A DNA stretch of 32,000 bases from Nanopusillaceae archaeon (GTDB lineage: Archaea > Nanobdellota > Nanobdellia > Nanobdellales > Nanobdellaceae): assembly GCA_049974095.1 (NCBI GenBank), contig JBMFJD010000002.1, positions 1-32,000 on the forward strand. Reading direction: 5' to 3'. Positions 2,231 to 31,577 of the stretch are shown piece by piece. How positions within the stretch are numbered: position 1 is the stretch's first letter; each line of letters opens with the position of its first letter. The translations under genes and the position numbers were made by a program. The notes below the pieces were generated by a model. That model worked only from the letters and a program-made list of their open reading frames with translations, made no database searches and was not told the DNA's origin.

Positions 2231-2231
2231 T

Positions 2232-4201: not shown

Positions 4202-5085
4202 AAGGATTATCATTAAAAGATATAATTGAATATATTGTTTCAGCAGTAATAATAATTATATATACATTATTAATTTTATTTTTCTACGGAATATATGAGA
4301 CAGAATCATATTCTTTACAATCTTATGAAATTTTTACTGAAGCTTTACTTGTAGATAGATTAAACTATTGTTTATATCAATATACTGGAAATCCTTATTA
4401 TTTATTTTATTCTCCAACAAATTCTACATTGTATGAATATTGGGATAATTTATCAAATTGTTATATGAACTTATCAGGATATTTTGAAATACCAGTAGAA
4501 AATTATTCAAACGCAGATTGTTCTTCAGCTGGAATAAAAATAAATAATAATATTGTATCATGTGAAGCAATAGAATATGCAAATATATCTTATAAATCAG
4601 TTCCATATTTTATATTCTATAATTTAAATGACCTAACAAAAAGTTATGTATTTTTTAAAAATGTTACATTTTTATTTGAATATCCTATAGGATATAGAAT
4701 TTTACCACATGCTGTTGAAAATAGTTTAATAACAAAATATGTTACTCCTCCTATGCAAATAAATATAAATAGTAATCTAAATTTATATAATACTTTATCA
4801 GAATATATTTATCAATCATCATCTTATTTAAATGATCTATTATATAATATTACAACAGAAAATAATACATTCCAAGATTTATATTCAGATTGTTTTTCAG
4901 AAAATTATAGATACGGATATTTTATTTTTCCAGTATATACAGGATCTGTATTTGAAGCAAATTATAATGGAGAACCAATAGTTATTGGTTTATATAATTT
5001 TGGAAGGGCAACTAGTGAATTATATAATTTAACATGTGGAGTAACTAATGAAGGCATAATTAATATTTCTACATGTAAAACATGA
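4198..5085 (+). CDS. Surface-cluster protein D (295 aa): prepilin-like N-terminus, heavily sequon-decorated
   Basis: In MKG-LSLKDIIEYIVSAVIIIIYTLLILFF, KGLS fits the archaeal class III cleavage pattern and an acidic residue falls at +5. I count 10 N-X-S/T sequons and 7 Cys. ATGA overlap with C. Confidence 0.75.
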   Translation: MKGLSLKDIIEYIVSAVIIIIYTLLILFFYGIYETESYSLQSYEIFTEALLVDRLNYCLYQYTGNPYYLFYSPTNSTLYEYWDNLSNCYMNLSGYFEIPVENYSNADCSSAGIKINNNIVSCEAIEYANISYKSVPYFIFYNLNDLTKSYVFFKNVTFLFEYPIGYRILPHAVENSLITKYVTPPMQININSNLNLYNTLSEYIYQSSSYLNDLLYNITTENNTFQDLYSDCFSENYRYGYFIFPVYTGSVFEANYNGEPIVIGLYNFGRATSELYNLTCGVTNEGIINISTCKT

Positions 5086-5549
5086 TGAAAAATCAAATTG
5101 GTTTCTTTTTATCAATATTATTTTCAACAATTCTTCTTTTATTTATGATTCTATATTTTTTATATGTAAATACAATACAACCAGCAACATTGACAGGAAT
5201 TGCAACAATACAATTAGAAGGATTAGAATATAGATCTTCAAATGGTTTCTTAGATTCTTTAGTATATTTTGAAGAAGTTCAGGTACCTGTAATTGATTTA
5301 TATGCAGGATATTATAATCAAAATATAGGCAATATAATAATAAATCAAACAATTAACGATACACTATATTATTTAAATCAATCAACAATATACTATTTTA
5401 ATTTTAATGGGAATCAGATAGGGGCTTGTGTAAATAAATATCCAATATATTATAATATATATGTAAATGGAGAAATAGAAAGAATAGAAGTATGTCCGCC
5501 AACCCTTTTATTAATTTACTACTATAATATAATATGCTCTCAAAGCTAA
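5082..5549 (+). CDS. Surface-cluster protein E (155 aa): N-terminal anchor helix
   Basis: MMKNQIGFFLSILFSTILLLFMILYFLYV, then an N/Y-rich domain. ATGA overlap with D. Confidence 0.7.
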   Translation: MMKNQIGFFLSILFSTILLLFMILYFLYVNTIQPATLTGIATIQLEGLEYRSSNGFLDSLVYFEEVQVPVIDLYAGYYNQNIGNIIINQTINDTLYYLNQSTIYYFNFNGNQIGACVNKYPIYYNIYVNGEIERIEVCPPTLLLIYYYNIICSQS

Positions 5550-7081
5550 GATCCTCTTTAGCGCCATTAATTTTAATTATTTCAATAATTATTTTATTAT
5601 TATTTTCTTTCTATTATTTGAATTCAAATACAAATACAGCTTTGTCAAATATGGAATATGTGTCTACAGATTATAAAGATTATCAACTCTTCTTATATTA
5701 TTTATTTGTATATATACCATTTGAAATAAGATATAATTTAATTAATTTGCTTTTATCCCAACTATATTCTAATGGAAATGTTTATAATTTAAATACTGTT
5801 CAATCTTTAAATTATCAACAGTGCCAAATTCCAATTGTTGAAAATCTTACAGAGGAAAAAAATATAATGTATTCCAATAAATTGGTTAGACCTATGTTAT
5901 TTACAAGTCCAGGAAGTAATCAAAATAATATATATAGTTATCATTATAAACTATGTATACCTTTGTTATATGTAGAAAATTATCAAAATGATTTCAAATT
6001 ATATAATTATGTACCAATATCTGATATTCCTTATGAAATACAGTCTGATGTTCAAAATTCATTAAAAAATTTACCACCTTTTATTAAATTAAAAGGTTTT
6101 ATCTATTTAGATGGATCATATATACTGTCATATGCTTTATATAATTTTTCTGTACAAGAAAAATATCAAAGAGAAGTAGAAATTAATAATATAGTTTATA
6201 ATTTATATCCTTATTTAATATATTATAATCAATTAATATGTAATATATATAATCAAACATTTTCTTTCTTTAATTTTGTTATAAATAATCAAAATAATTT
6301 TGCTTCATATCAAAATTATATATATTACAATCAAACATCTGGAGATAATACTTATCTATATTTTTCATTTAATAATACAGGATATTACGCATTAGATCTA
6401 TATTATAATAGTTTATTACCTCCGAATTATCCAAATAAAGCAAACATAACAATTGTATTACCATGTGAATCATTTGGCCAATTATATAATGGGGAATGTA
6501 AAGTAAATAATACTATTGAAAATTATGAAGATAGATGCTTATATGAAGGATCTATAAATTATCAAAATTTATTCCAAGGATTTAATTATGAAGAATATTC
6601 TCAAGAAATATTTAATGGATACTGGTATAAGGTCTCCTCAATAAATTATAATTTATTAAATAAACCTCTACCTCCAGATTTTTTAGATTGTAATGATACA
6701 GTAAAATTTGCAAAAGAGATGATTGGAAATTATACATATTTTACTGGAGGAAATTATCCAATATTGGTACCTGTAGAAGTAAATGTAAATTATAATAATA
6801 TATCTTGTGAATTAATGAATCAAACACTTGTTTTTGGTCCATATAATTTACAAGATTGTATATCTAATTATACAGAAGTTCAAGAAATAATAAATAGTAA
6901 TAATTTGAATAATTTATGTACATTAATTCAATGTTGGCAAAATAATCAATATTATTTTAATTTAACATGTTTTAATTCTCAAACAAATTATTTAAATTCA
7001 TTTAATTATAATTATGAAATATATGAATGGATTAATTTAAATGATAAAAATGTTAATGATTTTTGTAATAATCTACAATAA
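5534..7081 (+). CDS. Surface-cluster protein F (515 aa): N-terminal anchor helix and a large N/Y/C-rich domain
   Basis: MLSKLRSSLAPLILIISIIILLLFSFYYL. I count 13 N-X-S/T sequons and multiple Cys. It overlaps E by 16 nt. Confidence 0.75.
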   Translation: MLSKLRSSLAPLILIISIIILLLFSFYYLNSNTNTALSNMEYVSTDYKDYQLFLYYLFVYIPFEIRYNLINLLLSQLYSNGNVYNLNTVQSLNYQQCQIPIVENLTEEKNIMYSNKLVRPMLFTSPGSNQNNIYSYHYKLCIPLLYVENYQNDFKLYNYVPISDIPYEIQSDVQNSLKNLPPFIKLKGFIYLDGSYILSYALYNFSVQEKYQREVEINNIVYNLYPYLIYYNQLICNIYNQTFSFFNFVINNQNNFASYQNYIYYNQTSGDNTYLYFSFNNTGYYALDLYYNSLLPPNYPNKANITIVLPCESFGQLYNGECKVNNTIENYEDRCLYEGSINYQNLFQGFNYEEYSQEIFNGYWYKVSSINYNLLNKPLPPDFLDCNDTVKFAKEMIGNYTYFTGGNYPILVPVEVNVNYNNISCELMNQTLVFGPYNLQDCISNYTEVQEIINSNNLNNLCTLIQCWQNNQYYFNLTCFNSQTNYLNSFNYNYEIYEWINLNDKNVNDFCNNLQ

Positions 7082-9424: not shown

Positions 9425-10588
9425 ATGGCAGATATTAGGAACAAGCAAGTAGCGGCATCAATGTCTCAGAATGAAAATAAAAAAATAACACTTAGTGTAA
9501 TAAAGGCAGATGTAGGAGGATTTGTAGGACATCACTTAGTACCTTCGGTATTGGAAGAAACTGCAGAAGGAGTATTAGATGAGGCTGTAGGAGAAACAAT
9601 ATTTGATTATGCAGTATCTCATGTAGGAGACGATTTAATTTTGATAATGTTGCATAATAAGGGGGATGACAATCCAGAAATACATGGATTAGCATGGAAA
9701 ACATTCTTAAAATGTACAGATGTTGCAAAAGAAATGGGTTTATATGGGGCAGGACAGGATTTATTATCAAATGCATTTTCAGGTAATGTAAGAGGTTTAG
9801 GACCAGGTGTTGCAGAAATGACATTTACTGTAAGACCATCAGAACCAGTAATTGTATTTGGTGCAGATAAAACAGAAGCAGGAGCATTTAATTATCCATT
9901 ATTCCAAATGTTTGCAAACCCATTTAATACAGCAGGATTGGTTATTGACCCAGATATGCATATGGGATTTAGATTTGAAATATGGGATTTAATAGAACAT
10001 AAGAGAGTATTTATGAATGTACCAGAAGAAATGTATGATGTATTAGCATTAATTGGATCTATTGAAAGATATGCAATAAAAAGAGTTTATCCAAAACCTG
10101 AACATAAATGGCCTGTAGATGAACCAATTGCTGTATCTTCTACAGAAAGATTATTTGAGGAAGCTGGAAGATATGTTGGAAAGGATGATCCTGTAATGGT
10201 TGTAAGGGCACAGAATGGTTTTCCAGCAGTAGGAGAAGTATTAGAACCATTTGCATTCCCATATCTTGTAGATGGATGGATGAGAGGATCTCATTGGGGT
10301 CCATTAATGCCAGTACCTGTTAAAATGGCACATCCATCAAGATTTGATGGTCCACCAAGGGTTGTTGCATTAGGATTCCAAATAAAGAATGAAAAATTAC
10401 ATGGACCAGAAGATATGTTTGATGATCCAGCATTTGACTATGCAAGAGAATTAGCAAATCAAATTGCAGATTATATGAGGAGACATGGACCATTTGAGCC
10501 ACATAGAGTATCATATGAAGATTTAGAATATACAACAATACCTGCAATATTAGAAAAGCTAAAGAACAGGTTTGAGAAATTACAATAG
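9425..10588 (+). CDS. fbp: Bifunctional fructose-1,6-bisphosphate aldolase/phosphatase (class V FBPase)
   Basis: Near full-length motif agreement with archaeal FBP A/P as I remember it: SVIKADVGGFVGHH, GQDLLSNAFSGNVRGLGPGVAEM, GKDDPVMVVR, GWMRGSHWGPLMPV, RFDGPPR, DYMRRHGPFEPHR. Confidence 0.97.
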   Translation: MADIRNKQVAASMSQNENKKITLSVIKADVGGFVGHHLVPSVLEETAEGVLDEAVGETIFDYAVSHVGDDLILIMLHNKGDDNPEIHGLAWKTFLKCTDVAKEMGLYGAGQDLLSNAFSGNVRGLGPGVAEMTFTVRPSEPVIVFGADKTEAGAFNYPLFQMFANPFNTAGLVIDPDMHMGFRFEIWDLIEHKRVFMNVPEEMYDVLALIGSIERYAIKRVYPKPEHKWPVDEPIAVSSTERLFEEAGRYVGKDDPVMVVRAQNGFPAVGEVLEPFAFPYLVDGWMRGSHWGPLMPVPVKMAHPSRFDGPPRVVALGFQIKNEKLHGPEDMFDDPAFDYARELANQIADYMRRHGPFEPHRVSYEDLEYTTIPAILEKLKNRFEKLQ

Positions 10589-14491: not shown

Positions 14492-15218
14492 ATGAAAGTA
14501 GATGCAATAATAATTGGTGGAGGCGGTGGAGGATATCCAGGAGCATTTATATTGGCAAGATCAGGATATAATATTGCATTAATTGATGAAAAAGGAAAAT
14601 GTAGAAAAGAAAATAAGTGCAGGATTGGTTATATTAGCTACAGGTAGACAACCTGTAAAACCTGAAGGGATAGAAAAATTGGGATTAAATATGGATAATA
14701 AGGGAAATATAATAGTTGATGACGGAATGAGAACAAATATTCAAAATGTATTTGCTACAGGAGATGTAAATGGAAAAGCACCATATTTTCATGCAGCAGT
14801 TAGGATGTCTATTGCAGCAGCAAATAATATTATGTCAAAGTATTTTAATACAGATTATGTAGATATTAAAAGTATACCTGTAACAGTATTTGCATTTCCT
14901 CCAGCATCATATGTTGGTTTAACGGGATCTGAATTAAAGAAGAGAGGAATTGAATATATTGAGGCATCATATGATTTAAGTAAAGATGTAGAAGGACAGG
15001 TATATGAAGAAGATTTCGGGAAATTAAAATTATTCTTTGAGAAGGGAACATTGAGATTATTGGGGGGATGGGTTGTAGGAATAAATGCAGAAACGATAAT
15101 AAATGAAATTGGATTAGCAGTATCAAAAGAATTAACTGCAAGAGATCTAGCAAACTTTGCAGAACAGCATCCAATAACAAATGAATTAATATCATATACT
15201 GCAAGAAAAATATTATGA
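14492..15218 (+). pseudogene. Decayed pyridine nucleotide-disulfide oxidoreductase (dihydrolipoamide dehydrogenase-like): frameshifted, with a large internal deletion
   Basis: The frame from 14492 gives MKVDAIIIGGGGGGYPGAFILARSGYNIALIDEKG (the FAD Rossmann motif) and then stops at 14645-14647. A different frame (14583-15218) encodes only the last part (ILATGRQP...VFATGDVNGK plus the dimerisation domain ending HPITNE). The redox-active Cys pair and the NAD(P)-binding domain are missing. The total span is about 730 nt, whereas the family normally needs about 1350 nt. Confidence 0.65.
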
Positions 15219-17597: not shown

Positions 17598-19871
17598 ATG
17601 AATAGATATATTTATGCACTTTTATTCATTTTCCTTCCATTAAATTTTGTCTTTTCAACCAATAACTTATTTGGGTATCAGATAAAAACAATACCGAATA
17701 ATTTAATTAATACATTTCCATTAAATGGAGGTATTTCCTTAATACATTTTGGAATATTATATCAAAATTATTATTTTCCGATTCCATTAAATGGCAATAA
17801 TTATTTAAATATATATTTTAATTCTAGTAATCCTGTGCAAATTTATATTTTAAATCAATCAAATTATTACAATTTTGAAAATGGTTTAAATTATATTCCA
17901 TATTATGAAAATTATACAAATTTTCTAAATACAAGTATTTATATTCCTGAAGGTCGGTATTATTTAATTATTTTAAACACAAATTATAATAGTGTTTATT
18001 TTTATTTAATATATAATCTTGCAAGTAATTCTATTAATGAATTATATTATCCTATCGGAATTTCAGATTATGGAATATTTTATAACTATAATATAAATCA
18101 AATACAAGGATATAAATATGAAACAAACCTTGTTGTTGGTTCTATATATTTACAAGATTTTAATGTAACTGTAGAACCAATATGTTCTATAAATAGTTTT
18201 TATAATAATGCAGGTTCTATTCAATTAAATGCTGTATTAGAAGTTAATACAATAAATGGACTACAATATTATTGGTTACAAAATGTTTTATTAATAAATA
18301 ATACAGGTGGGTACTATTATATTGAAGATAATATATGGAATTGGACTTCTATCTATGCAAATATTAGCAATAATTCTATAATTGGATCTGGAGATGTATA
18401 TTTAGTTAATTTATTCTCTCAATACTATTATGCTGCAGTTTCAAATATCTATAATTTATCATATCCATTAAATATATATTTGATCATTAATGTATCTCAA
18501 AATAATAGTTATCCAGAAATTCAATTTGGATATTCATTTGATGGGGAAAATATAGTATGGTATGATAATGTTACACTACTTATCCAAAGTACAGATAATT
18601 ATATTATTGTAGAACCAAATATTACTCCATCTGGAACTCCTGAAGATTTAGAATTGGTAATTGGAGGACCTGGAGATGGAGATTGTATATATACAAATAA
18701 TATTAATGGATATTTGGGACTTTATTTCTTATATAATTATAATGGACAATATTATCTTTCTCCAATACTATATTCAGCAAATTTTGGTGAAAGTACTGCA
18801 GAAGCATCAGCAAATATTAATTCATATATTTACTCTCAAGGAATTGTGCAATTAAGTACTGGCATTGGATATCCAACAATATTTTTTAACAATTCAGAAA
18901 ACTATTTTAATTTAACAATCTATTATAATTTTAATAATACAAATATTACATATTCTTTATTTCCATTACAAACGATACAATTGAATTTTTCTAGAATAAT
19001 AAATTATAATAATCAAGAATATCTTCTAAATGGTATATATATAAATGGAGAATTTTATAATATAACAAATATTACATTAATTGCAAATCAAAACTATAAT
19101 ATTTATTTAGACTATGTTCCAATATATAATGTAACAATATTTTACTATGGATTAAATAAAGAAGAAAATTTATTAGAAGTAAGTGGTAATACTCTATATT
19201 TAAATTTATCAAATTATATATACATAAATGATTCTTTTAGATATTATTTGGAAAAAATTATAATAAATGGAATAGAATTTAATCAAAATAACATATATTT
19301 AAACATTACAAACAACTATTTCATATATTTATACTATATTCCTCAATATAAAATTGAAATAAATTTCCCATATAATTATTCAATTAATAATACCCAATAT
19401 GAAGAAAATAATTATTTTTGGATTAATAATAACTCTTATATAAATATAAATATCGATAATTATTATTATTTTAGCTCTTATAGATATTATTGTCCTAAAA
19501 ATAATATAATAATATTTGTTAATAGTTCTGAAAATATAGATCTTTTAAATTATTGTATAATACAATATCAGGTAAATATTTCTTCAGAATTTCCTATAAA
19601 TATATCTATAAATGGTGAAAAAATAAATAATATTAACAATTTTAATGAATATTTAAATAATAGTGATGAAATAGTAATTTATCCAGAAAAATTGACTAGA
19701 AATAATATATTATATAAAGAAATTTATTATTTTGATGGAGAAAATATTACAATAAGCTCTCCAGAAAATATTTATATTAAATTTAATAAGAAAATAGAAT
19801 ATAATTATCCTATTATTGGTGGAATAACATCAATTCCTATTGCTATAATATTAATATATATTTTATATTAG
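17598..19871 (+). CDS. Thermopsin-like (peptidase A5 family) surface glycoprotein with a signal peptide, three C-terminal repeat modules and a C-terminal TM anchor
   Basis: Signal peptide MNRYIYALLFIFLPLNFVFS. YPIGISDYGI, GSIQLNAVLEV...YYWLQNVLLINNTG and IEDNIWNWTS resemble the thermopsin domain as I recall it. I count 33 N-X-S/T sequons. The C-terminus IIGGITSIPIAIILIYILY is hydrophobic. Confidence 0.6.
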   Translation: MNRYIYALLFIFLPLNFVFSTNNLFGYQIKTIPNNLINTFPLNGGISLIHFGILYQNYYFPIPLNGNNYLNIYFNSSNPVQIYILNQSNYYNFENGLNYIPYYENYTNFLNTSIYIPEGRYYLIILNTNYNSVYFYLIYNLASNSINELYYPIGISDYGIFYNYNINQIQGYKYETNLVVGSIYLQDFNVTVEPICSINSFYNNAGSIQLNAVLEVNTINGLQYYWLQNVLLINNTGGYYYIEDNIWNWTSIYANISNNSIIGSGDVYLVNLFSQYYYAAVSNIYNLSYPLNIYLIINVSQNNSYPEIQFGYSFDGENIVWYDNVTLLIQSTDNYIIVEPNITPSGTPEDLELVIGGPGDGDCIYTNNINGYLGLYFLYNYNGQYYLSPILYSANFGESTAEASANINSYIYSQGIVQLSTGIGYPTIFFNNSENYFNLTIYYNFNNTNITYSLFPLQTIQLNFSRIINYNNQEYLLNGIYINGEFYNITNITLIANQNYNIYLDYVPIYNVTIFYYGLNKEENLLEVSGNTLYLNLSNYIYINDSFRYYLEKIIINGIEFNQNNIYLNITNNYFIYLYYIPQYKIEINFPYNYSINNTQYEENNYFWINNNSYININIDNYYYFSSYRYYCPKNNIIIFVNSSENIDLLNYCIIQYQVNISSEFPINISINGEKINNINNFNEYLNNSDEIVIYPEKLTRNNILYKEIYYFDGENITISSPENIYIKFNKKIEYNYPIIGGITSIPIAIILIYILY

Positions 19872-20551
19872 AATTCTATTTTTTCTATTTCTTTTGATGC
19901 CTCTTCTAAATCTTTTAATGTATCTATAGATCTCCAATATATATTATCAAATTTTTCTCCTTTTAATAATCCTTCTTTTGCTAATCTTGGAAATGTTTCT
20001 TTCTCAATATCTCCAATTTCTGGTAAATATTCAAATATTTTATTAGAAAATAAATATACTCCTGCATTTATCCAATATTCTTTTAATATTGGTTTTTCTA
20101 TAAATTCTTTAATTTTATTTCCTTCTAATAATACAACTCCATATGTAGATCTTAATGGAACTAATGAAATTACTCCGATAAAATTATCTAAAGATAACTT
20201 TGAAATATCCAAATTTGTTATTATATCACCATTTATCATTAGAAATTTTTCTTCATTTTTTAATATTTTTTCTGCTTTCTTTAATGCTCCTCCTGTTCCC
20301 AATGGTTTGCTTTCTATAGAAAAATAAAAATTAACATTTAATTTTTCTTCATTTTCTTTACACCATTCAATTAATTTTTCATATTTATATCCTGCTAGCA
20401 GAATTATATCATTAATATTATATTTCTTTAACCAATTTATTTGATATTCTAAAATAGTTTTTCCATTTATTTCAACTAAATTTTTTGGTTTATCTTCTGT
20501 AAAAGGTCTTAATCTTTTTCCATATCCTCCAGCTAATATAATAGCTTTCAT
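19868..20551 (-). CDS. NDP-sugar pyrophosphorylase (sugar-1-phosphate nucleotidyltransferase)
   Basis: MKAIILAGGYGKRLRPFTEDKPKNLVEI is the canonical GGxGxRL nucleotidyltransferase N-terminus. I set the start at 20551 because the 23-codon track extension is a translation of the tRNA-Arg gene. Confidence 0.85.
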   Translation of the reverse strand: MKAIILAGGYGKRLRPFTEDKPKNLVEINGKTILEYQINWLKKYNINDIILLAGYKYEKLIEWCKENEEKLNVNFYFSIESKPLGTGGALKKAEKILKNEEKFLMINGDIITNLDISKLSLDNFIGVISLVPLRSTYGVVLLEGNKIKEFIEKPILKEYWINAGVYLFSNKIFEYLPEIGDIEKETFPRLAKEGLLKGEKFDNIYWRSIDTLKDLEEASKEIEKIEF

Positions 20552-20578
20552 AATAAAAGAATATTTTTTATATTTAAA

Positions 20579-20653
20579 TGGACCCGCGGGGATTCGAACC
20601 CCGGACCTCCCGGACCGCAACCGGGAATTCTATCCAAGCTGAACTACGGGTCC
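20579..20653 (-). tRNA. tRNA-Arg (anticodon GCG); no encoded CCA
   Basis: Reverse complement GGACCCGTAGTTCAGCTTGGATAGAATTCCCGGTTGCGGTCCGGGAGGTCCGGGGTTCGAATCCCCGCGGGTCCA. Anticodon stem CCCGG/CCGGG, loop TTGCGGT. Confidence 0.9.
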
Positions 20654-20719
20654 ATCTTCAGTCTCTGTCTTTTGTCATATTTCAGTGGCACACAAGATCA
20701 TTATAAAAGTTATTATTTT

Positions 20720-23245: not shown

Positions 23246-23318
23246 TGCCACCGCCGGGACTTGAACCCGGGGCCTCTGCCTTACCAGGGCAGCGCTCTAC
23301 CAGCTGAGCTACGGTGGC
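23246..23318 (-). tRNA. tRNA-Thr (anticodon GGU); no encoded CCA
   Basis: Reverse complement GCCACCGTAGCTCAGCTGGTAGAGCGCTGCCCTGGTAAGGCAGAGGCCCCGGGTTCAAGTCCCGGCGGTGGCA, with loop CTGGTAA. Its 5' base overlaps the stop codon of the upstream CDS. Confidence 0.9.
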
Positions 23319-24238
23319 TATTTTCCTATTTTCTTTGATACTATATTTATATATTGTGGGCTAATTGTATATAAATACTCTTTCTCACCTTCTTCTCTTA
23401 AAACAATTCCTTCTTTATGCATTTTATTTAAATATTTTGATGCAGTATTTTTTGGAATATTTAATATTCTCGCAATTTCTCTTGCAGATAATTTATTTCC
23501 TATTAATAATTCTAAAATTTTTATTTGGGTTGGTGATAAATTAATATTTTTATTTTCTATTGTAATTTCTTCTACAGGTCCTTTTATTATATTCTCTATT
23601 GGATGATTCATATTTTCTAAAATATTATTTAATTCAATAAATATTGATCTAACATTATCTCCATTTTTTCTAATTATTTTTCTTAAATATTCGCTATCAA
23701 ATTTTATTTTTCCCTTCAATTTCTTATTTATTAATTGTATTATGCCATCTTCATCAGGAAATTTCATTTCTATTTTTTCATGTAATCTATTTAAAAAAGA
23801 AGGAGTAGCATTCATTATTTGTGGAGATGGTTGTATTAACATTATTGAATATGCAATTTTGTTATCATACAAATATTTTAATTTCTTTGAAACTTCTTCT
23901 GGAAAACTATAAAATTCATCTAGGATTAGTACAAGGGGTAATTTATTTCTAAATTTGAAAAATAGAAATTTAATATATAATCCTTCTTCAATTTTCTTAT
24001 CAATATTTTTATCATATTCTCCATTTATATATATTATATTATATTCATCAGATAATTCTTTTTTTATCTTAAATGCTAAAGAAGTTTTTCCAGATCCTAT
24101 TGGTCCATACAATAAAAATATTTCTCCATTTCTTATTGCATTTTTAACTTTTTTAATTATATCATCTACTCCAACTAATTCTTCGTTTGGTCTTATATCC
24201 AAAGGATTCCTTATAAAACCATATTTTTTCCACCACAT
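23318..24238 (-). CDS. AAA+/P-loop ATPase with a C-terminal winged-helix DNA-binding domain (archaeal ATPase or Orc1/Cdc6-like architecture)
   Basis: Walker A LLYGPIGSGKTS, Walker B LVLILDEF, and the C-terminal HTH LSAREIARILNIPKNTASKYLNKMHKEGIV. Confidence 0.65.
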   Translation of the reverse strand: MWWKKYGFIRNPLDIRPNEELVGVDDIIKKVKNAIRNGEIFLLYGPIGSGKTSLAFKIKKELSDEYNIIYINGEYDKNIDKKIEEGLYIKFLFFKFRNKLPLVLILDEFYSFPEEVSKKLKYLYDNKIAYSIMLIQPSPQIMNATPSFLNRLHEKIEMKFPDEDGIIQLINKKLKGKIKFDSEYLRKIIRKNGDNVRSIFIELNNILENMNHPIENIIKGPVEEITIENKNINLSPTQIKILELLIGNKLSAREIARILNIPKNTASKYLNKMHKEGIVLREEGEKEYLYTISPQYINIVSKKIGK

Positions 24239-24239: not shown

Positions 24240-25856
24240 TTATTTTATTATTTCTTTTAATTCTATATATGTAGCTAAAGACCATAATTGATGTATAGCA
24301 CCTGCTATTTTCATTTCATTAGCGCTAGATCTTTCTGGTAGTGTTCCTATCATTTTAATAAATTCATTATCAGAATTTAATATATTTTCAATTATTTTTT
24401 CATATTTTTCTTTATTTACTTTATATAAAGAAATTGCAGCAATATTGTTTATATATATCCATGAATCTCCATTATGCATTGATTTTCCCTCATTTTTAAA
24501 GTAATTATCTTCATTGCTTTCTCCTATAAAATCTTTATCTAATTTTGATAAACTAGAAAATCCTCCCCAAGATAAATATAAATGATTCATCGAATAATCA
24601 AATATCTTTTCCCATTCATAATTTGAAAACATTTCTGGATAATAATAATAAGATAAAAATATATTACATCTTATTTTCTTATCTTTTAAATCATCATATA
24701 AAGAATAATCTGATAAATAATATCTCCTTATAGAAAATTTTATCTTATCTAATTTTTCTTTATATTCTTCATTTTTATTATATTTATATAAATTATCATA
24801 TAAATTTGCCATAAGAAATTGTATTTCTATTGGGTATTCTCTATTTAAAGTATCCATCCATGTTTCATTTGGATATGCTTTAAATAAGAAATATTTTTCA
24901 TTTAAATAGTTTTCTTCATATAATTTTAATTTTTCAATAATAATATTTACGAGCTTTTTAAATTCATCTTCATTAAATAAATTATTAAATTCGAACAATC
25001 TTTTTGCGTATAATCCAATTCCATCAGAATTACCAATATTTTGATCTTTAATATTCTTTAATCTTCCATCTAATAAAAAATAATTTGAATATTCAATTAT
25101 CTTTTCCTTTACGAGATCTTTATATCCTATATAATATAAACCTGGAAGAGATATTAAAACATCTCTTGTCCATTCTTGGAAATACCATGGAAAACCTGCT
25201 GATATATGATTATTATTTATAAATGAGGAAATTCTTTCTTCAATTAAACTCTTCTTTTTTTCTCTTTTATTCTCTTCTTTTTTCCATATTATTTCTATTT
25301 TATTTCCTATAAATGTAAATGGAGAATATAAATATCTCTCAAATGGAGGGGATTTCTTATATTCATCATAATTATAAAATACTTTTATCCACTTTTCATT
25401 ATTTTCTAAATAATTTTTAAATCCTTTTATATAGATTTCGAAATTTATATCTCCTTTATTAAATTTTATTTTTATATCTTCTTTGTTTATTTCATAATTA
25501 TATATTCTTCCCCATTCATCTATATCATATAAATGCCTTATATCAAATAGAATATTTATTCTAGATTCATCTTTTGTTTTATATACAAGTTTATTCTCTA
25601 ATAATTGATATTCTTCCCAATTTCTATCTTCATAATTTATTTTTATTTTATTAGTATTCTCTAAAATAATTTCTTCAATTTTTTTCTCTTTTATTCTCTC
25701 ATTTTCAATTCTATCTATCACTTTTATATAATAGTTCCTATATGGAAGTAATAAACCAAAATATCTACTATTATATAATAAAGGTAACAAAAAAAAGGCA
25801 TTTTTATTTGTCAATATAGAATAATGAATCTCCTTTAATTTCATAAAATCTTCCAT
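24240..25856 (-). CDS. Glycogen debranching enzyme, amylo-alpha-1,6-glucosidase type (GDE_C/GH133-like)
   Basis: AGFPWYFQEWTRDVLISLPG matches the GFPWF..WGRDT.I(S/A)L signature of the amylo-1,6-glucosidase domain. The (alpha/alpha)6-type C-terminal region (GDSWIYINN) is present. Confidence 0.72.
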   Translation of the reverse strand: MEDFMKLKEIHYSILTNKNAFFLLPLLYNSRYFGLLLPYRNYYIKVIDRIENERIKEKKIEEIILENTNKIKINYEDRNWEEYQLLENKLVYKTKDESRINILFDIRHLYDIDEWGRIYNYEINKEDIKIKFNKGDINFEIYIKGFKNYLENNEKWIKVFYNYDEYKKSPPFERYLYSPFTFIGNKIEIIWKKEENKREKKKSLIEERISSFINNNHISAGFPWYFQEWTRDVLISLPGLYYIGYKDLVKEKIIEYSNYFLLDGRLKNIKDQNIGNSDGIGLYAKRLFEFNNLFNEDEFKKLVNIIIEKLKLYEENYLNEKYFLFKAYPNETWMDTLNREYPIEIQFLMANLYDNLYKYNKNEEYKEKLDKIKFSIRRYYLSDYSLYDDLKDKKIRCNIFLSYYYYPEMFSNYEWEKIFDYSMNHLYLSWGGFSSLSKLDKDFIGESNEDNYFKNEGKSMHNGDSWIYINNIAAISLYKVNKEKYEKIIENILNSDNEFIKMIGTLPERSSANEMKIAGAIHQLWSLATYIELKEIIK

Positions 25857-25907
25857 GAATTTAATTTCAATTAAATATTTATATTTCTTTTTAGATATAA
25901 ATATTTA

Positions 25908-27107
25908 ATGAAAATTTTATTCTTATCTTGGGGTATACTTCCTCAAAAAACCGGAGGTCTAGAAAAAGCAACGTATTATTATTTTAAATATCTTGATTCC
26001 TTTGATAATGAAGTATATTTGGTTATTCCAAATTTAACAAGTGATGTAATAAATTTTTGGAAAGATAAAACAAAGAAATCAAAAATATTTGGATTAAATA
26101 TTCCAATATATAGATCATATATAGATTATTTTAAGTACGAATCTTTTACTTTGTATAGAAGGAATATAATTGACTATAGAAAATCTGTAATGGAATATAA
26201 AGAAAAGGTAATAAGGATTGTAAAAGAATTAAATTTGGATTTTGATATAATTTATTCGTATGATTGGTTAACAGCACCCGCAGCAGTTGAATTAAAAAAA
26301 ATTTATAACAAGCCATTAGTAATTCATTTTCATTCTTTATCTTATGATAGAGTTGGTGCGAATCCTGATTTATTAAAATACTTGGTTGAATATGATTATG
26401 GAATAGAATTGGAAGCATGTAGAGTTGCAGATAAAGTTGTTACTGTAAGTAAAAGAGAAAAGGATGTTTTAGTAAAATATTATAATTGTCCAGAAGAAAA
26501 AATTGAAGTAATATATAATGCTCCAGATGATGACTTTTCAATAAAAGATAAAATAGAAAATAAAATAAAAGAGAAATATAAAATTGTATTATATTTAGGG
26601 AGAATGACATTACATAAAGGACCAGATTATTTATTATTGGCTGCAAAAAAAGTATTGGAAAAAAGAAAGGATGTATTATTTATATTTGCAGGAACTGGAG
26701 ATATGATAGATAAATTAATAAAAATGGCTGCAGATTTGAATATATCAAAAAATGTTATTTTTACAGGTTGGATTGATGATAATTTGGCAGAATATTTGTA
26801 TTCAATTTCGGATATCTTTGTTTTACCATCAGTTTCTGAACCTTTTGGTTTAACACCATTTGAGGCATTACAATATAAAGATTTTATAATAGTATCAAAA
26901 CAATCTGGGGTATCTGAAGTATTAAAAAGTGTATTAAAAATAGATTTTTGGGATGTAGATAAATTAGCAAATTATATTTTAGCATTATTAGAATATCCAA
27001 AGTTGGGAGAATTTGAAATAAAATTATGTTTAGAAGATATAAAAAATTTATCTTGGAAAGATTCAGTTAATAAGCTTTTGTATATTTTCAGAAGCTTGGG
27101 TAGATAA
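25908..27107 (+). CDS. glgA: Glycogen synthase, GT5 archaeal/bacterial type
   Basis: It carries the N-terminal KTGGL motif (LPQKTGGLEKA) and the GT-B C-terminal motif SEPFGLTPFEALQ. Its overall layout resembles Pyrococcus glycogen synthase as I recall it. Confidence 0.75.
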   Translation: MKILFLSWGILPQKTGGLEKATYYYFKYLDSFDNEVYLVIPNLTSDVINFWKDKTKKSKIFGLNIPIYRSYIDYFKYESFTLYRRNIIDYRKSVMEYKEKVIRIVKELNLDFDIIYSYDWLTAPAAVELKKIYNKPLVIHFHSLSYDRVGANPDLLKYLVEYDYGIELEACRVADKVVTVSKREKDVLVKYYNCPEEKIEVIYNAPDDDFSIKDKIENKIKEKYKIVLYLGRMTLHKGPDYLLLAAKKVLEKRKDVLFIFAGTGDMIDKLIKMAADLNISKNVIFTGWIDDNLAEYLYSISDIFVLPSVSEPFGLTPFEALQYKDFIIVSKQSGVSEVLKSVLKIDFWDVDKLANYILALLEYPKLGEFEIKLCLEDIKNLSWKDSVNKLLYIFRSLGR

Positions 27108-28253
27108 ATCAATATCTCTTAGTATATTCATATAGGATATAAAAGCATCATAAGGTGTTACAAATGCTTCTTCTCTAAAATATTTATGTACATCTCCATC
27201 AGCATTATATTTTAAACTCATATAATAGAAATTATCTGATGTAGATAAATATCTTAATATTTTCAATATTTCTTCATTATTTTTATTTTTATGATATAAT
27301 TCTTTTAAATAATCTAATGCTTCCCTTTGTATACTATCTCCAAACCATGCAGACAAGTCTCTTTCAATATCTGCCCAGGATATCAAATTCTCTATGCTTA
27401 ATTCTCCCTTTGCTTCAAATTTATTTGCAGCTTCAATAATTTTATATGTTTTGAAATATTTTTCTTTTCCAATATATTCAAATAATTTATTCCAAAATTC
27501 AAATATCCCTGCTTCTTTCCATATATGTTCCCCAATTGTTTCAAAATCCATAAAAATATTTATTATATCTCCAGGAGTATTTTTTAACCATAGATAATAT
27601 TTATCTGCAGTCAATGGATATTCTTTCCAATCCCTATTTGTAAATCTAAATGCTATATCATCAGATAGTCTATAATTTCTTAATAATAATCTTAAGTTTG
27701 TTCCTTTTAATTTATATACATAATTAGGACTCCTCCATCCTAATATTTTTTCTGTTCCTTCAGTCAATGCAGCTTCAAATCCTAAAGAATATACAATGTT
27801 TCCAATATCATTATTAAATACAAGTTCAAAATTTCTGAAGGATTTTGCTTTATATCCAAATATTTCTTTTATTTTTTTTCTGTGAATTTTTATCTGATTT
27901 ATAAATTCTTCTTTATCCATTAAATATGAAACTGAATGATAATATGTTTCTGCAACAATTTCAACATTTCCTGTATCAACAAGTTTTTTCCATAGTTCTA
28001 ATATTTCAGGATGATATAATTCTAATTGTTCAATCAATGTACCAGAAATTGAAAAAGAAAATTTTAAATCATATTTTGTTATAGCATTATATATTATCTC
28101 TAATGCAGGTTTATAGCATTTATTTACAACTCTGTCCAAAATTCTTTTATTTATTTCGTCATTGAAATAATTTTTTGATCCAATATCGAAAAAAGAATAG
28201 TATCTTATTCTTCTAGGTTGATGCGCATGGAAATAAAATACTATGCCTGGCAT
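27063..28253 (-). CDS. Glycoside hydrolase family 57 enzyme (alpha-amylase-like)
   Basis: The N-terminus MPGIVFYFHAHQPRR (the GH57 HQP motif) and FMDFETIGEHIW are present. Its 3' end overlaps glgA by 45 nt, convergently. Confidence 0.8.
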   Translation of the reverse strand: MPGIVFYFHAHQPRRIRYYSFFDIGSKNYFNDEINKRILDRVVNKCYKPALEIIYNAITKYDLKFSFSISGTLIEQLELYHPEILELWKKLVDTGNVEIVAETYYHSVSYLMDKEEFINQIKIHRKKIKEIFGYKAKSFRNFELVFNNDIGNIVYSLGFEAALTEGTEKILGWRSPNYVYKLKGTNLRLLLRNYRLSDDIAFRFTNRDWKEYPLTADKYYLWLKNTPGDIINIFMDFETIGEHIWKEAGIFEFWNKLFEYIGKEKYFKTYKIIEAANKFEAKGELSIENLISWADIERDLSAWFGDSIQREALDYLKELYHKNKNNEEILKILRYLSTSDNFYYMSLKYNADGDVHKYFREEAFVTPYDAFISYMNILRDIDLSTQASENIQKLIN

Positions 28254-28290
28254 AAATATTTTTTAAATAAATGATAATATAAATTTATTT

Positions 28291-28611
28291 ATGATAGAAG
28301 TAAAAAATGATAAAGAAGTTTTTATCACTATAGATGGACAAAAATTATATGGTCTTTATGATCTATTAATTTGGTTATATAATGCAGATGAAAATAATTT
28401 TTTATATCATCAAAAAGGAGGGCACTTTTACAATTGGATATATAATTCATTAGAAGAAAAAGATGTAGCAGAAGAAATAAAGAATATAAATAGTAGAGAA
28501 GAAATGATAGAAATAATTGAAAGATATTTAAGAGGATATGAATTATATGTAAAGAAAAAATATAAAAAGGAAGAGGCAGAAATAGAATTTATTAAAAGAT
28601 TCGAATTATGA
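28291..28611 (+). CDS. Small soluble protein (106 aa), unknown; first gene of a three-gene coupled unit
   Basis: FITIDGQKLYGLYDLLIWLYNADENNFLYHQKGGHFYNWIYNSLEEKDVAEEI. Its stop overlaps the next start (ATGA at 28608). Confidence 0.6.
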   Translation: MIEVKNDKEVFITIDGQKLYGLYDLLIWLYNADENNFLYHQKGGHFYNWIYNSLEEKDVAEEIKNINSREEMIEIIERYLRGYELYVKKKYKKEEAEIEFIKRFEL

Positions 28612-29273
28612 TACTATCATTTATTTCTCTTAAAGGAGGTGTTGGAAAAACAACATTATCAAATAATTTAGCAGCATATTTAAGGAAATTCTATAATTAT
28701 AAAGTTTTAATAATAGATACAAATGGTATATATTCATCTAATTTTATATTTCTTAAAGATAAAAAGTTGTTTGGAGATAGATTGTGGCAAGATATTAAAA
28801 TATTGCCATTTTTCCATTTAAAAATAACAAATGGATTACCAATGAATTATGAAAATGATTTGATTTATTTAAGAAGAATATATGATGTAATAATATTTGA
28901 TGTATTTCCAGATCCAAGCTTAATATATTCTATTGAAAAAATATCTGATACAAATTTCTTAGTTTTAAATCCAGATTTATATTCATTATATGCAAATAAA
29001 AGATTATATGAAAATCTGAATAAGGATAAAATAAAAATAATTTTAAATAAATATGATAAAAGCATTGATATAGATTTTATAGAAGAAATATTTGGAAAAG
29101 AAATATATTCTGTAATACCATATATAAAAGAATTTAATGAATATCAATTTCAATATACTCCAATAGCATTTTATAATGAAAAATCAAAAGCATTAAAATA
29201 TATAGATGAATTAGCATATTTAATTACTGGAAGAAAAAGAAAAAAAGGAATATTAGATATTATATTTAGATGA
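28608..29273 (+). CDS. ParA/MinD-family P-loop ATPase (deviant Walker A)
   Basis: SLKGGVGKTTLSNNLA (the KGGxGKT motif), VLIIDTNG and VIIFDVFPD. It has ATGA overlaps with both neighbours. Confidence 0.8.
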   Translation: MILSFISLKGGVGKTTLSNNLAAYLRKFYNYKVLIIDTNGIYSSNFIFLKDKKLFGDRLWQDIKILPFFHLKITNGLPMNYENDLIYLRRIYDVIIFDVFPDPSLIYSIEKISDTNFLVLNPDLYSLYANKRLYENLNKDKIKIILNKYDKSIDIDFIEEIFGKEIYSVIPYIKEFNEYQFQYTPIAFYNEKSKALKYIDELAYLITGRKRKKGILDIIFR

Positions 29274-30907
29274 TATTATTTGAAGAATCTTGGGAAGTAT
29301 GTAATAAAGTTGGGGGAATATATACTGTTTTATCTACAAAATCAAAATATATAAAGGAAAAATATGGAGATAACTATTTTTTAATAGGACCATATAAAGA
29401 AAATCCTGAATTTATAGAATTAGAAGAACCAAAATATATAAAAGAAATAAATTTTGAATTAGAAGATATAAAAATTCATTATGGATATTGGGATATTGAA
29501 GCAAAACCAAAAGTATTTTTAGTAGATTTCAAAGAATTTATGGAAAAAGAAAAAAATTTATGGAAATATAAGTTTTGGGAATGGTATAAAATTGATTCTT
29601 TAAAATCCGATTTTACATTTGATGAACCATTTTCATGGTCTGTAGCAGTTGGTATATTTTTAGAAAAATTAGAAAAATATTTTAATGATGTAAAAATTTT
29701 ACATGCACATGAATGGTTATCTGGAGGGACAATTTTATATATTAAAAAGAAAAATTTGAATTATAAAACAATATTTACAATTCATGGAACTGTAATTGGA
29801 AGAAGTTTATCGGAAAGAAATGTAAATGTATTTGAAGTATTAGATAAAATTGATCCGGATAAAGATTCATATAGATTAGGAGTACATTTTAAACATCAGT
29901 TAGAAAAAGCAACAGTATTAGATACAGATATATTTACTACAGTTTCAGATAATTTAAATGAAGAAGCTCAAAAAATATTTGGAAGAAAAGCAGATTATAT
30001 TACATATAATTATATTAATGTAAAAGAAAAAGAATTATATTATTATTATGAAATTGGAAGGAAATGGATTAATGAATTTTTAACATGGTATTTTTATCCA
30101 TATTATGATTTACCAGAAAATTATCTATTAATTTATACAATTGGGAGATATGAACCATATAATAAAGGAATAGACTTATTTATTGATATATTAAAATATT
30201 TGGAAGAAAATCAAATAGATACAATTGCATTTATATTTGTTCCATATTATTATGAAGGAATAGATGAAAATATAATAAAAACATACAAAGATTATATTAA
30301 TTTAAAGAAATATCTTGAAGAAAATCAATATGAAATAATAAGATCTTTATATAATAAAAAAAATATATTAAATTATCTTGATAGAATAAAAAATAGAAAT
30401 CCTCCAATTGTTACTCATAAGACAAATGAATCATTTATTATAAATAAATTAAAATCTGTAGGATTAAATAATAGTAAAGATAATTTTGTAAAAGTAATAT
30501 ATGCTCCAATATATTTAGGAAAAGATATAATATTTAATTTAGAACAAGAATATTTATTACCTGTATTTGATTTTGGAATATTTTTATCTAGATACGAACC
30601 ATATGGATATACGCTATTGGAAGCATTATATAATTTTGTCCCAATAATAATATCAAATAAAACAGGATTTTATAGAAATCTTTTGAATAAAGGAATAAAT
30701 CATGATTTTATAATATCTGTAGATCCATATAATATAGAAAATGAAAAAGAGAATATATTAAGAAAAATTATTAAATATAAAAATTTAGATTTATATAAAA
30801 AATTAGAAATTAAAAAACAAATGTATGAAATATCAAAGAAATATAGTTGGAAGGATAATATTAAAGAATATATTAATATTTATGAAAATATTTTAAAAGG
30901 TCAATAA
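29270..30907 (+). CDS. Glycogen synthase of the eukaryote-like GT3 family
   Basis: The N-terminus LFEESWEVCNKVGGIYTVLSTKSKYIKEKYGDNYFLIGPY is close to the metazoan/fungal glycogen synthase N-terminus as I recall it (FEVAWEVANKVGGIYTVL.TK.....GDNYFLVGPY). It also has HAHEWLSG and the C-terminal YEPYGYTLLEA. Confidence 0.85.
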   Translation: MILFEESWEVCNKVGGIYTVLSTKSKYIKEKYGDNYFLIGPYKENPEFIELEEPKYIKEINFELEDIKIHYGYWDIEAKPKVFLVDFKEFMEKEKNLWKYKFWEWYKIDSLKSDFTFDEPFSWSVAVGIFLEKLEKYFNDVKILHAHEWLSGGTILYIKKKNLNYKTIFTIHGTVIGRSLSERNVNVFEVLDKIDPDKDSYRLGVHFKHQLEKATVLDTDIFTTVSDNLNEEAQKIFGRKADYITYNYINVKEKELYYYYEIGRKWINEFLTWYFYPYYDLPENYLLIYTIGRYEPYNKGIDLFIDILKYLEENQIDTIAFIFVPYYYEGIDENIIKTYKDYINLKKYLEENQYEIIRSLYNKKNILNYLDRIKNRNPPIVTHKTNESFIINKLKSVGLNNSKDNFVKVIYAPIYLGKDIIFNLEQEYLLPVFDFGIFLSRYEPYGYTLLEALYNFVPIIISNKTGFYRNLLNKGINHDFIISVDPYNIENEKENILRKIIKYKNLDLYKKLEIKKQMYEISKKYSWKDNIKEYINIYENILKGQ

Positions 30908-30920: not shown

Positions 30921-31577
30921 ATGACAAGCTTTGCGAGCTTTATAATTAATCTAATAAACTATTCTGGGATAAGTTTTATATTTTTATTTATATTTTATTT
31001 CGCAGTATTTTATTCATTATTATTATTTTTATTTAAATTTATTCAGATAAAAGATCAACAAAAACAACAAAGTCAAGGACAAAAAAAGATAGAAATAGAT
31101 AAATTTATTGCTTTATTAATTTCATTATCTGCAGCATTCTTTTTAGCATCTTTTTCAGGTTACTATTTATTTACTCAATATTTTTTGGCATTTTTAGCAT
31201 CAATGATTATTGCTTTATTCTTCTTTATTTTAATAGTAAATTTATTAACAAATGGCGCATTCTTTAATTATTTATCAAATTTATTTAGCAATCCTCAAAA
31301 CTTATCTACATCTAGAATAAGATATGTTCCAATATTTACTATATTAGTGATAGTTCTTTTTGCATTACTTGCAATATATTATGCATATCAAAGTTATTTT
31401 TTATCATTAACAGTAGGAACAAGTTCTCAATCCCGAATGTATCAAATAACATTTAATCAATATATTTTATTTGCAGTAATTTTCTTTGTCATTTTAGGAG
31501 TATTTATTATAGCAATGAGTTCTGGAGGAGAAACACAAAAGGGAGGAGGTGGGGGAACTCAAGCAAAAAGTAAATGA
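30921..31577 (+). CDS. Multi-pass membrane protein (218 aa) with a Gly-rich C-terminal tail, unknown function
   Basis: About 5 hydrophobic helices, a Q/K-rich loop and the tail SSGGETQKGGGGGTQAKSK. Confidence 0.6.
   Translation: MTSFASFIINLINYSGISFIFLFIFYFAVFYSLLLFLFKFIQIKDQQKQQSQGQKKIEIDKFIALLISLSAAFFLASFSGYYLFTQYFLAFLASMIIALFFFILIVNLLTNGAFFNYLSNLFSNPQNLSTSRIRYVPIFTILVIVLFALLAIYYAYQSYFLSLTVGTSSQSRMYQITFNQYILFAVIFFVILGVFIIAMSSGGETQKGGGGGTQAKSK

Follow-up and report, generated by a model that had tools for sequence, protein, structure and literature searches.

In this study, we undertook a computational analysis of a 32,000-nucleotide stretch of DNA from a Nanopusillaceae archaeon (assembly GCA_049974095.1, contig JBMFJD010000002.1, positions 1 to 32,000; hereafter the window). 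Particular attention was given to the interval 24240-30907, in which an initial annotation had described a compact glycogen island encoding a debranching enzyme, a synthase of glycosyltransferase family GT5, a hydrolase of glycoside hydrolase family GH57 and a eukaryote-type synthase of family GT3. The gene content of the interval was established from a listing of its open reading frames (ORFs) in combination with Pfam and NCBIfam scans. All four enzyme genes were found as ORFs at exactly the coordinates given initially, and the interval also holds two short genes that the earlier list had missed (28291-28611 and 28608-29273). Its features are as follows:

24240-25856, minus strand: debrancher, a GDE_C / GH133-type amylo-alpha-1,6-glucosidase of 538 amino acids (aa) (PF06202)
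25857-25907: AT-rich divergent intergenic region of 51 bp between the debrancher and GT4/5 genes, a presumed bidirectional promoter (read from the letters)
25908-27107, plus strand: predicted retaining GT-B glucosyltransferase on the GT4/GT5 border, 399 aa (Pyrococcus abyssi GlgA-like / GlgM-like / Rv3032-type architecture)
27063-28253, minus strand: short GH57 enzyme, 396 aa, with a candidate amylase-type or branching activity (PF03065)
28254-28290: divergent intergenic region of 37 bp between the GH57 gene and a three-gene operon (read from the letters)
28291-28611, plus strand: divergent single-repeat protein, probably of the DUF5752 (PF19027) family, 106 aa (transitive homology)
28608-29273, plus strand: ParA/MinD-type P-loop ATPase with a basic-hydrophobic C-terminal tail, 221 aa (PF01656 CbiA)
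29270-30907, plus strand: GT3 (eukaryote-type) glycogen synthase, 545 aa (PF05693)

The six genes are arranged as two divergent pairs and one operon: the debrancher and GT4/5 genes point away from each other, as do the GH57 gene and the operon, in which the DUF5752-like, ParA/MinD-like and GT3 genes follow in that order. Both the DUF5752-like/ParA-like and the ParA-like/GT3 junctions have a 4-nt stop/start overlap, which suggests that these three genes form a single translationally coupled operon. At their 3' ends, the convergent GT4/5 and GH57 genes overlap by 45 nt (27063-27107). A 3' overlap of these two genes, of 14-63 nt, was present in every family member examined, including Nanobdella aerobiophila (L082, 5816-5857), NZ13-N (L083, 5820-5833) and GCA_053994055.1 (L084, 1297-1359); most other phyla have the pair in the same direction.

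The GT3 protein matched the Glycogen_syn profile (PF05693) over residues 6-468 at 234.2 bits against a cutoff of 27, as expected from its initial assignment, and its best solved structures were those of yeast Gsy2 and human GYS1 (E 2e-57). Eight residues of its N-terminal motif EVCNKVGGIY (E9, V10, N12, K13, V14, G15, G16 and I17) were invariant in 19 homologs, as was the E-x7-E motif (E443/E451), and both motifs align to their yeast Gsy2 counterparts. The Pfam match reaches no further than profile position 505 of 639, and in the C-terminal helix we found, by eye, Lys at places that we take to be Arg in the eukaryotic enzymes. One resemblance to the eukaryotic glycogen system, which comprises a GT3 synthase, a GT8 glycogenin and the debranching enzyme GDE, lies in the synthase, with its best solved matches in yeast and human. 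In contrast, the eukaryotic synthase has ~700 aa compared with 545 aa in the window, and for the GT8 glycogenin of that system there was no GT8 or glycogenin match among the window ORFs scanned. The GT3 protein also matched Glyco_transf_5 and Glycos_transf_1, so the two synthases of the interval are distant GT-B relatives and their initial description as unrelated was too strong. Its nearest relatives were from a Nanoarchaeota genome (84% identity), Nanobsidianus stetteri (Nst1, 73%), N. aerobiophila (68%) and NZ13-N (53%), and the next tier, in Woesearchaeota and bacteria of the candidate phyla radiation (CPR), was at only 35-39% identity, which places the window in a Nanopusillaceae nanoarchaeon. 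According to a 2024 review, GT3 synthases of archaea are confined to DPANN and Euryarchaeota (PMC11046441).

The GH133-type identity of the debrancher was likewise borne out, as its residues 214-531 matched GDE_C (PF06202) at 71.9 bits (cutoff 21), spanning profile positions 14-366 of 367, and the motif that had first drawn attention to it (FPWYFQEWTRD, beginning at residue 222) is kept, its G-PW-W-RD core being at least 95% conserved in 23 homologs. Conserved segments in the same homologs were AG.PW....W.RD (220-232), WMD (333-335), E344, H461.GDSW466 and E508, with the acidic residues D232, D335, E344, D464 and E508 each at least 95% conserved. A sequence search of the PDB gave no match for this protein. 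GDE_C corresponds to the glucosidase half of the eukaryotic debranching enzyme, and the Pfam scan gave no match past GDE_C, so no transferase half was seen. GH133 enzymes are widespread in Archaea (PMC11046441), and the analogy with the GH133 mutant of Sulfolobus acidocaldarius supports a catabolic role for the one in the window.

Assignment of the 399-aa transferase was less straightforward. The QKTGGL motif that underlay its GT5 label is present, and when the family profile was compared with the PDB, the GT5 glycogen synthase GlgA of P. abyssi came narrowly first (123 bits, full length), ahead of the GT4 enzymes GlgM (115 bits) and BshA (101 bits). Against that label, its Pfam scores were 112 bits for Glycos_transf_1 and 64.2 bits for the GT4 N-domain Glyco_transf_4 (PF13439) compared with 47.3 bits for Glyco_transf_5 (PF08323), its relatives are named 'glycosyltransferase family 4 protein' at NCBI (some are named 'glycogen synthase' at JGI), and in 26 homologs the Lys position of the motif was variable, with G16 and G17 conserved and L18 at least 90% so. 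A Foldseek search with an AlphaFold2 (AF2) model of the protein (predicted local distance difference test score, pLDDT, 89) placed the GT4 enzymes MshA, BshA and GlgM at ranks 1-8, the P. abyssi glycogen synthase at ranks 9-12, and the GT5 glycogen synthases of E. coli and A. tumefaciens at rank 33 or lower. The initial annotation had treated a generic GT4 assignment as evidence against its reading, and for this protein a part of the evidence does point to GT4. A secure GT5 assignment is not supported by the relative scores of PF13439 and PF08323 or by the NCBIfam glgA models, all of which were far under their cutoffs. The profile and fold searches point to different families, and we regard the protein as a probable retaining GT-B glucosyltransferase on the border of GT4 and GT5. 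Its two nearest solved sequence matches, P. abyssi GlgA and GlgM, both transfer glucose from NDP-glucose (NDP, nucleoside diphosphate) into alpha-1,4 bonds.

The GH57 assignment held, with residues 5-287 matching PF03065 at 257.5 bits (cutoff 21.2) and the catalytic pair kept. H11, E143 and D236, the last in the sequence MDFETIGE (a D-x-E-x-x-G segment), were invariant in 17 homologs, and E143 aligns to position 123 of the 4-alpha-glucanotransferase chain of Thermococcus litoralis, which we take to be the nucleophile Glu. No other carbohydrate-active domain was found in the Pfam scan of this protein, which besides gave just a weak Polysacc_deac_1 match. The only solved structures reached by the family profile were 1k1w (33.8 bits) and AmyC of Thermotoga maritima, 2b5d (22.6 bits), and none of the solved GH57 branching enzymes was reached. 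A classical GH57 branching enzyme was ruled out as an identity for this protein, which has 396 aa compared with ~520 aa and lacks an additional C-terminal domain match. Branching by the GH57 enzyme is a conjecture because of its short length, its match to the catalytic domain alone and the distance of its profile from the solved GH57 enzymes. Conceivably, the short enzyme may still branch, as the failed tests lower the standing of the classical branching enzyme alone.

A role for the GH57 enzyme on the side of synthesis would fit its tight pairing with the GT4/5 gene, and it has a parallel in S. acidocaldarius, where the GH57 gene amyA is transcribed together with glgA and a strain deleted for amyA no longer accumulates glycogen (PMC8158581). 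Both amyA and glgA are needed for glycogen in that archaeon, and its GH133 mutant (glgX) over-accumulates it (PMC8158581, PMC11046441). The genetics of S. acidocaldarius therefore place a GH57 'amylase' and a glycogen synthase on the anabolic side and a GH133-type debrancher on the catabolic side (PMC8158581, PMC11046441), in a gene set that, like that of the window, has no classical branching enzyme. Sulfolobus differs in having a GT5 synthase and a GH15 glucoamylase, and in having neither a GT3 synthase nor a second transferase on the GT4/GT5 border; our comparison is of gene content and published genetics.

A second parallel is with mycobacteria, in which the GT4 alpha-1,4-glucosyltransferase Rv3032 adjoins a putative GH57 branching gene, Rv3031 (PMC2674218, PMC6355812). 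Rv3032 and the window transferase are alike in size (~400 aa) and in their PF13439 + PF00534 architecture, as compared by description, and each adjoins a GH57 gene. The function of Rv3032 overlaps in part with that of another glucan synthase (PMC2674218, PMC6355812). Rv3031 is regarded in that literature as a potential branching gene, and among the products of the mycobacterial pathway is a methylated lipopolysaccharide; in contrast, no methyltransferase or acyltransferase genes were seen in the window cluster. One alternative is that the GT4/5 and GH57 enzymes build some other alpha-glucoside or oligoglucan (for example, a product akin to methylglucose lipopolysaccharide, MGLP, or one primed by glucosylglycerate, maltose-1-phosphate as made by GlgM, or precursors for surface glycosylation) and that GT3 is the sole glycogen synthase. 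GT4 enzymes are functionally diverse, GlgM was the second-best solved match at 115 bits and GT4 structures topped the fold search, all of which are consistent with such a product, as is the fact that Rv3032/Rv3031 make MGLP besides glucan (PMC2674218); in addition, Wurch et al. have argued for glycosylation as the sink of gluconeogenesis in a related nanoarchaeon (PMC4935971). Nevertheless, we consider this alternative unlikely, since the GT4/5-GH57 pair adjoins GT3, and often GDE_C, in dozens of phylogenetically distant loci, the methyltransferase, acyltransferase, GpgS and GlgE partners that would be expected were not found among the scanned window ORFs, and S. acidocaldarius needs its GH57 and synthase pair for glycogen itself (PMC8158581). 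The 2024 review lists GT4 genes clustered with GH133 and GH57 genes as unexplained (PMC11046441).

The initial annotation had also pointed to genes elsewhere in the window that may supply the cluster with sugar. These, and a gene that directly follows the debrancher, are:

9425-10588, plus strand: fructose-1,6-bisphosphate (FBP) aldolase/phosphatase (PF01950, NCBIfam NF041126)
19868-20551, minus strand: short sugar-1-phosphate nucleotidyltransferase, 227 aa (PF00483)
23318-24238, minus strand: AAA_14 ATPase + winged helix-turn-helix (HTH; TrmB/ArsR-like) protein (Pfam)

The FBP aldolase/phosphatase was confirmed by scores of 576 bits against PF01950 and 556 bits against the NCBIfam equivalog NF041126 (cutoff 520). 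For the presumed NDP-sugar pyrophosphorylase at 19868, the family was recovered (PF00483, 119.9 bits), whereas no specificity for sugar or nucleotide could be assigned, as no NCBIfam model reached its cutoff and the best was an archaeal GlmU-like N-domain. A longer, TTG-start version of this ORF (19868-20620, minus strand) is overlapped in its 5' part by tRNA-Arg(GCG) at 20578-20654 (minus strand), so the true nucleotidyltransferase is the 227-aa version, which is also the gene call on a 74.8-kb JGI metagenome contig, a part of which is identical to the window. In other DPANN archaea (L085, L086 and one more), a longer nucleotidyltransferase with a left-handed beta-helix C-terminus of the LbH type lies in the cluster beside GDE_C, whereas the short one outside the cluster is the only nucleotidyltransferase of the window.

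In agreement with the initial annotation, which had seen neither a glycogen phosphorylase nor an obvious GH13 or GH57 branching enzyme, our scans of the window ORFs gave no match to a phosphorylase, GH13, GH15 or GT8, and no full-length GH57 branching enzyme of ~520 aa. A further alternative is that the cluster is mainly catabolic, with the GH57 enzyme and the debrancher degrading glucans or maltodextrins of the host and the transferases having minor or other roles. Enrichments of Nanopusillus acidilobi grew in a glycogen-containing medium, and the proteome of this archaeon included enzymes that hydrolyse glycogen (PMC4935971), findings that would suit this alternative. However, the cluster has kept two NDP-sugar glucosyltransferases, both intact, and the sole FBP enzyme is the unidirectional gluconeogenic one, which a relative expresses at a high level (PMC3655853, PMC4935971), as it is among the most abundant proteins of N. 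acidilobi (PMC4935971). In addition, no sugar-transporter family was matched by any scanned ORF of the cluster or its flanks, and the S. acidocaldarius GH57 mutant loses its glycogen rather than over-accumulating it (PMC8158581). A mainly catabolic cluster therefore seems to us decidedly improbable.

Comparison with other genomes revealed that the same six genes, in the same order and orientation, are present in six family members, namely the window contig (L001), L002, L003, the cultured N. aerobiophila (complete genome, AP019769.1), NZ13-N and GCA_053994055.1. GT3 identity to the window across these members was 46-84%, with the most distant at 46%, and the flanking SBDS, proteasome, TFIIB and Lon genes were also syntenic. 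In trees of the GT3, GT4/5 and GH57 proteins, the Nanopusillaceae were monophyletic with an identical internal topology in all three; the trees were built by neighbour joining and midpoint-rooted, carry no support values, and were relied on only for this repeated topology. Phylogenies had been suggested initially as a check on lateral transfer, and that of GT3 resolved the family as one clade congruent with those of GT4/5 and GH57.

The GT4/5, GH57 and GT3 genes are found together far beyond the family. GT3 relatives were sought in one genome per species, which gave 80 loci, many of which end at contig ends. A GT4/5 gene lay beside GT3 in 19 of 33 other DPANN loci, 3/7 CPR loci, 18 of 29 in Bacteroidota and three of the four Desulfo/Syntropho loci, and where both the GT4/5 gene and the ~400-aa GH57 gene were detected, they were mostly within 400 bp of each other. 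Groups with the triad comprise Woesearchaeota, Nanohaloarchaea and Altiarchaeales; Paceibacterota, Azambacteria and Parcubacteria; Bacteroidales; and loci of the Desulfovibrio/Syntrophaceae type, and GDE_C is often nearby. The GT4/5-GH57-GT3 triad is an old, widely shared module. The side-by-side synthases are thus not the oddity that the initial annotation took them for, since the triad is widespread and glycogen genes of nanoarchaea had already been published (PMC3655853, PMC4935971). Several metagenome-assembled genomes (MAGs) titled 'uncultured Methanosarcinales archaeon' (L007, L014, L023, L034, L037 and L043) have GT3 clusters that group with Woesearchaeota in the trees, and several of them carry DUF5752 genes; their taxonomic labels may be unreliable.

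A recent lateral acquisition of the island, which had been offered as an explanation for adjacent synthases of different families, is refuted by these comparisons. It could draw on a published GT3 phylogeny that suggests inter-domain transfers between DPANN and Bacteroidetes (PMC11046441) and on the occurrence of the triad in very distant phyla. Set against this are the retention of the six-gene order among members with GT3 identities to the window of only 46-84%, the monophyly and identical topology of the family in three gene trees, the synteny of the flanking genes, and the composition of the cluster, whose GC content (0.21-0.25) lies inside the 0.17-0.33 range of the rest of the ~22% GC window. 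Any transfer would predate the family, and it is possible that the triad as a unit entered or left DPANN in the distant past.

The two genes that had been missed precede GT3 in its operon. The 106-aa protein gave no Pfam match at the default threshold, and its score against DUF5752 (PF19027) was 13.6 bits, under the cutoff of 23. Scores above that cutoff were obtained for its ortholog in L002 (25.2 bits) and for homologs in Woesearchaeota and Altiarchaeales (30.9-33 bits). A hidden Markov model (HMM) iterated from the 106-aa protein retrieved 34 ORFs in GT3-anchored loci, recovering the above-cutoff DUF5752 homologs, and nearly all of these ORFs adjoin GH57/GT3 genes in DPANN archaea, where there are often two or three copies of them. 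A profile search of a large protein database gave a consistent result, as most of the 120 matches listed carry a precomputed PF19027 assignment. Transitive homology of this kind argues for membership of the 106-aa protein in the DUF5752 family. Its AF2 model (pLDDT 90) consists of a beta-hairpin, four short helices and one long helix, and a Foldseek search of the PDB gave no fold match for it (best E 1.5). A full-text literature search for 'DUF5752' returned no paper. When four DUF5752 proteins on long contigs were used as starting points, all four showed the order GT4/5, GH57, DUF5752, a ~210-aa protein and GT3, and three of the four contigs go on with NTP_transferase and GDE_C.

The ATPase scored 51.7 bits against CbiA (PF01656), and invariant in seven orthologs were a deviant Walker A motif, KGGVGKT (K9-GGVGK14-T), D37, D98 and N147; it thus has the signature lysine and the Walker A' and Walker B aspartates of ParA/MinD proteins. 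All seven orthologs also have the C-terminal tail ITG.[KR]..[KR].I[LF]..I (GRKRKKGILDIIFR and equivalents), which resembles, in its sequence, the membrane-targeting helix of MinD. All relatives with at least 42% identity were in the same DUF5752-ParA-GT3 context, and the ~70 matches at 25-33% identity in a metagenome scan with the ParA-like profile were ordinary MinD/ParA genes outside glycogen clusters, which are uninformative about this subfamily. At a further locus with no glycogen cluster (L157, 3625-4795), a weak DUF5752-like ORF (22 bits) is directly upstream of a MinD/ParA-type gene; the pair adjoins pyruvate:ferredoxin oxidoreductase genes and may represent a separate DUF5752-ParA association, but is too weak to count.

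A complementary pattern emerged from 26 loci with DUF5752, six of them in Nanopusillaceae and 20 in other taxa. A DUF5752 paralog ending in a C-terminal transmembrane (TM) helix was present in 15 of the 20 non-Nanopusillaceae loci, whereas the six Nanopusillaceae loci and L034 have no TM paralog; in these, GT3 is instead directly preceded by a gene for a ParA/MinD-like protein with a basic-amphipathic tail. From this pattern, DUF5752 may connect glycogen synthesis with the membrane, either by itself or by way of the ATPase. Known parallels are ParA/MinD cargo-positioning pairs such as that of bacterial cellulose synthesis, in which a ParA/MinD ATPase (BcsQ) and a small partner (BcsR) are encoded with a polysaccharide synthase. 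The window ATPase has a weak, P-loop-level match to CBP_BcsQ (PF06564), but no specific homology beyond the P-loop fold, and DUF5752 is unrelated to BcsR as far as tested. We know of no earlier case of a glycogen synthase operon with its own ParA/MinD-type ATPase.

Taken together, these results make it probable that the interval is a vertically inherited cluster for the synthesis and turnover of an alpha-glucan (glycogen) in a Nanopusillaceae nanoarchaeon. In the pathway that we propose, gluconeogenesis through the FBP aldolase/phosphatase would provide hexose phosphate, which the nucleotidyltransferase would convert to NDP-glucose, and GT3 would elongate alpha-1,4 chains. The enzyme on the GT4/GT5 border would be a second alpha-1,4-glucosyltransferase, most plausibly the maker of primers because no glycogenin-type GT8 was matched among the scanned window ORFs. 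A split between priming and elongation, which the initial annotation had listed among the explanations for two synthases, is plausible. The short GH57 enzyme would act on the side of synthesis, as amyA does in S. acidocaldarius, and perhaps supply the branching activity, whereas the GH133-type enzyme would debranch glycogen during its mobilisation. The DUF5752 protein and the ParA/MinD-like ATPase would be accessory factors of the synthase operon, most likely anchoring or positioning the synthase or the granule at the membrane.

Several points weigh against this interpretation or parts of it. Glycogen has not been demonstrated in any nanoarchaeon, the 2024 review calls glycogen in DPANN 'questionable' and no archaeal GT3 enzyme has been characterised or assayed (PMC11046441). 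Wurch et al. discuss stored glycogen in N. acidilobi and favour a role in surface glycosylation for its gluconeogenesis (PMC4935971). The donor specificity of the nucleotidyltransferase cannot be assigned from curated models, and its gene is 3.7 kb from the cluster. The GH57 enzyme, at 396 aa, gives no sign of the extra C-terminal domain of the ~520-aa branching enzymes and its profile barely reaches the solved GH57 structures. The anchoring or positioning role is drawn from gene order and a sequence-level resemblance of the ATPase tail only, and in four loci with DUF5752, the region examined contains no TM paralog and no ParA-like gene.

The most far-reaching form of our interpretation combines three proposals. 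DUF5752 would be a hitherto unrecognised accessory factor of GT3-type prokaryotic glycogen synthesis that ties the synthase or granule to the membrane, through a tail-anchored paralog in most DPANN and through a MinD/ParA ATPase that replaces that anchor in Nanopusillaceae and L034; the GT4/5 enzyme would replace glycogenin as the maker of primers; and the 'missing' branching enzyme of archaea would be the short GH57. As a whole, this combination is put forward tentatively, as a possibility that we regard as rather unlikely.

The immediate surroundings of the cluster are partly conserved. The gene for the AAA_14/winged-HTH protein shares its strand with the debrancher gene and begins 1 nt past the stop of the latter. 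L003 and N. aerobiophila both keep it; in L002 we did not detect it, and NZ13-N lacks it at this place. It may encode a regulator of the glycogen cluster, of which its membership is uncertain. On the other side, 14 nt 3' of GT3, lies an ORF for a multi-pass membrane protein of 218 aa whose C-terminus is rich in Gly (30921-31577, plus strand), the sole match of which was a sub-threshold one to Sulf_transp. It occupies the same place in L002, L003, L082 and L083, and in L084 two inserted genes separate it from GT3. Further away, a 757-aa thermopsin-family protease (17598-19871, plus strand; 190 bits) adjoins the nucleotidyltransferase, and in N. aerobiophila a thermopsin gene is likewise upstream of the glycogen cluster.

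Elsewhere in the window, six consecutive and mostly abutting ORFs at 448-7081 (plus strand; 430, 297, 358, 295, 155 and 515 aa) had no Pfam match even at E 0.05 and are a block of lineage-specific proteins. A 211-aa ORF at 14583-15218 (plus strand) matches a pyridine nucleotide-disulphide oxidoreductase over the C-terminal end of that enzyme only (Pyr_redox_2 positions 221-290 and the dimerisation domain). This ORF may represent a gene remnant or a split gene, the latter being a known feature of Nanoarchaeota. Three further tRNAs, for Leu, Pro and Thr, are also present in the window.

The picture at the center of the initial annotation, a reduced genome with a compact set of alpha-glucan (glycogen) genes and, not far from them, genes for gluconeogenic supply, is correct and was already published, as the gluconeogenesis and glycogen genes of terrestrial Nanoarchaeota were described in 2013 and 2016 (PMC3655853, PMC4935971). 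The window has the same genes in the same order as the terrestrial set of Nst1 ('Nanobsidianus stetteri'), N. acidilobi and N. aerobiophila, from which it differs in representing a distinct uncultured relative, its nearest GT3 being 84% identical, and it adds one more uncultured Nanopusillaceae genome. What is new here are the two uncharacterised accessory genes inside the cluster, the DUF5752-like and the ParA-like; in the passages searched of the papers on terrestrial Nanoarchaeota, neither gene is described, nor is the architecture of the cluster. Our comparison provides a first functional context for DUF5752, that of alpha-glucan clusters, and suggests that a glycogen synthase operon has a ParA/MinD-type ATPase of its own. 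The value of the Nanopusillaceae cluster lies in its being a minimal, strictly conserved test bed for questions left by the 2024 review. It bears on how prokaryotic GT3 synthases start their chains without glycogenin, on whether a GH57 'amylase' acts as the brancher in archaea that have no classical branching enzyme, and on whether DPANN archaea make glycogen at all.

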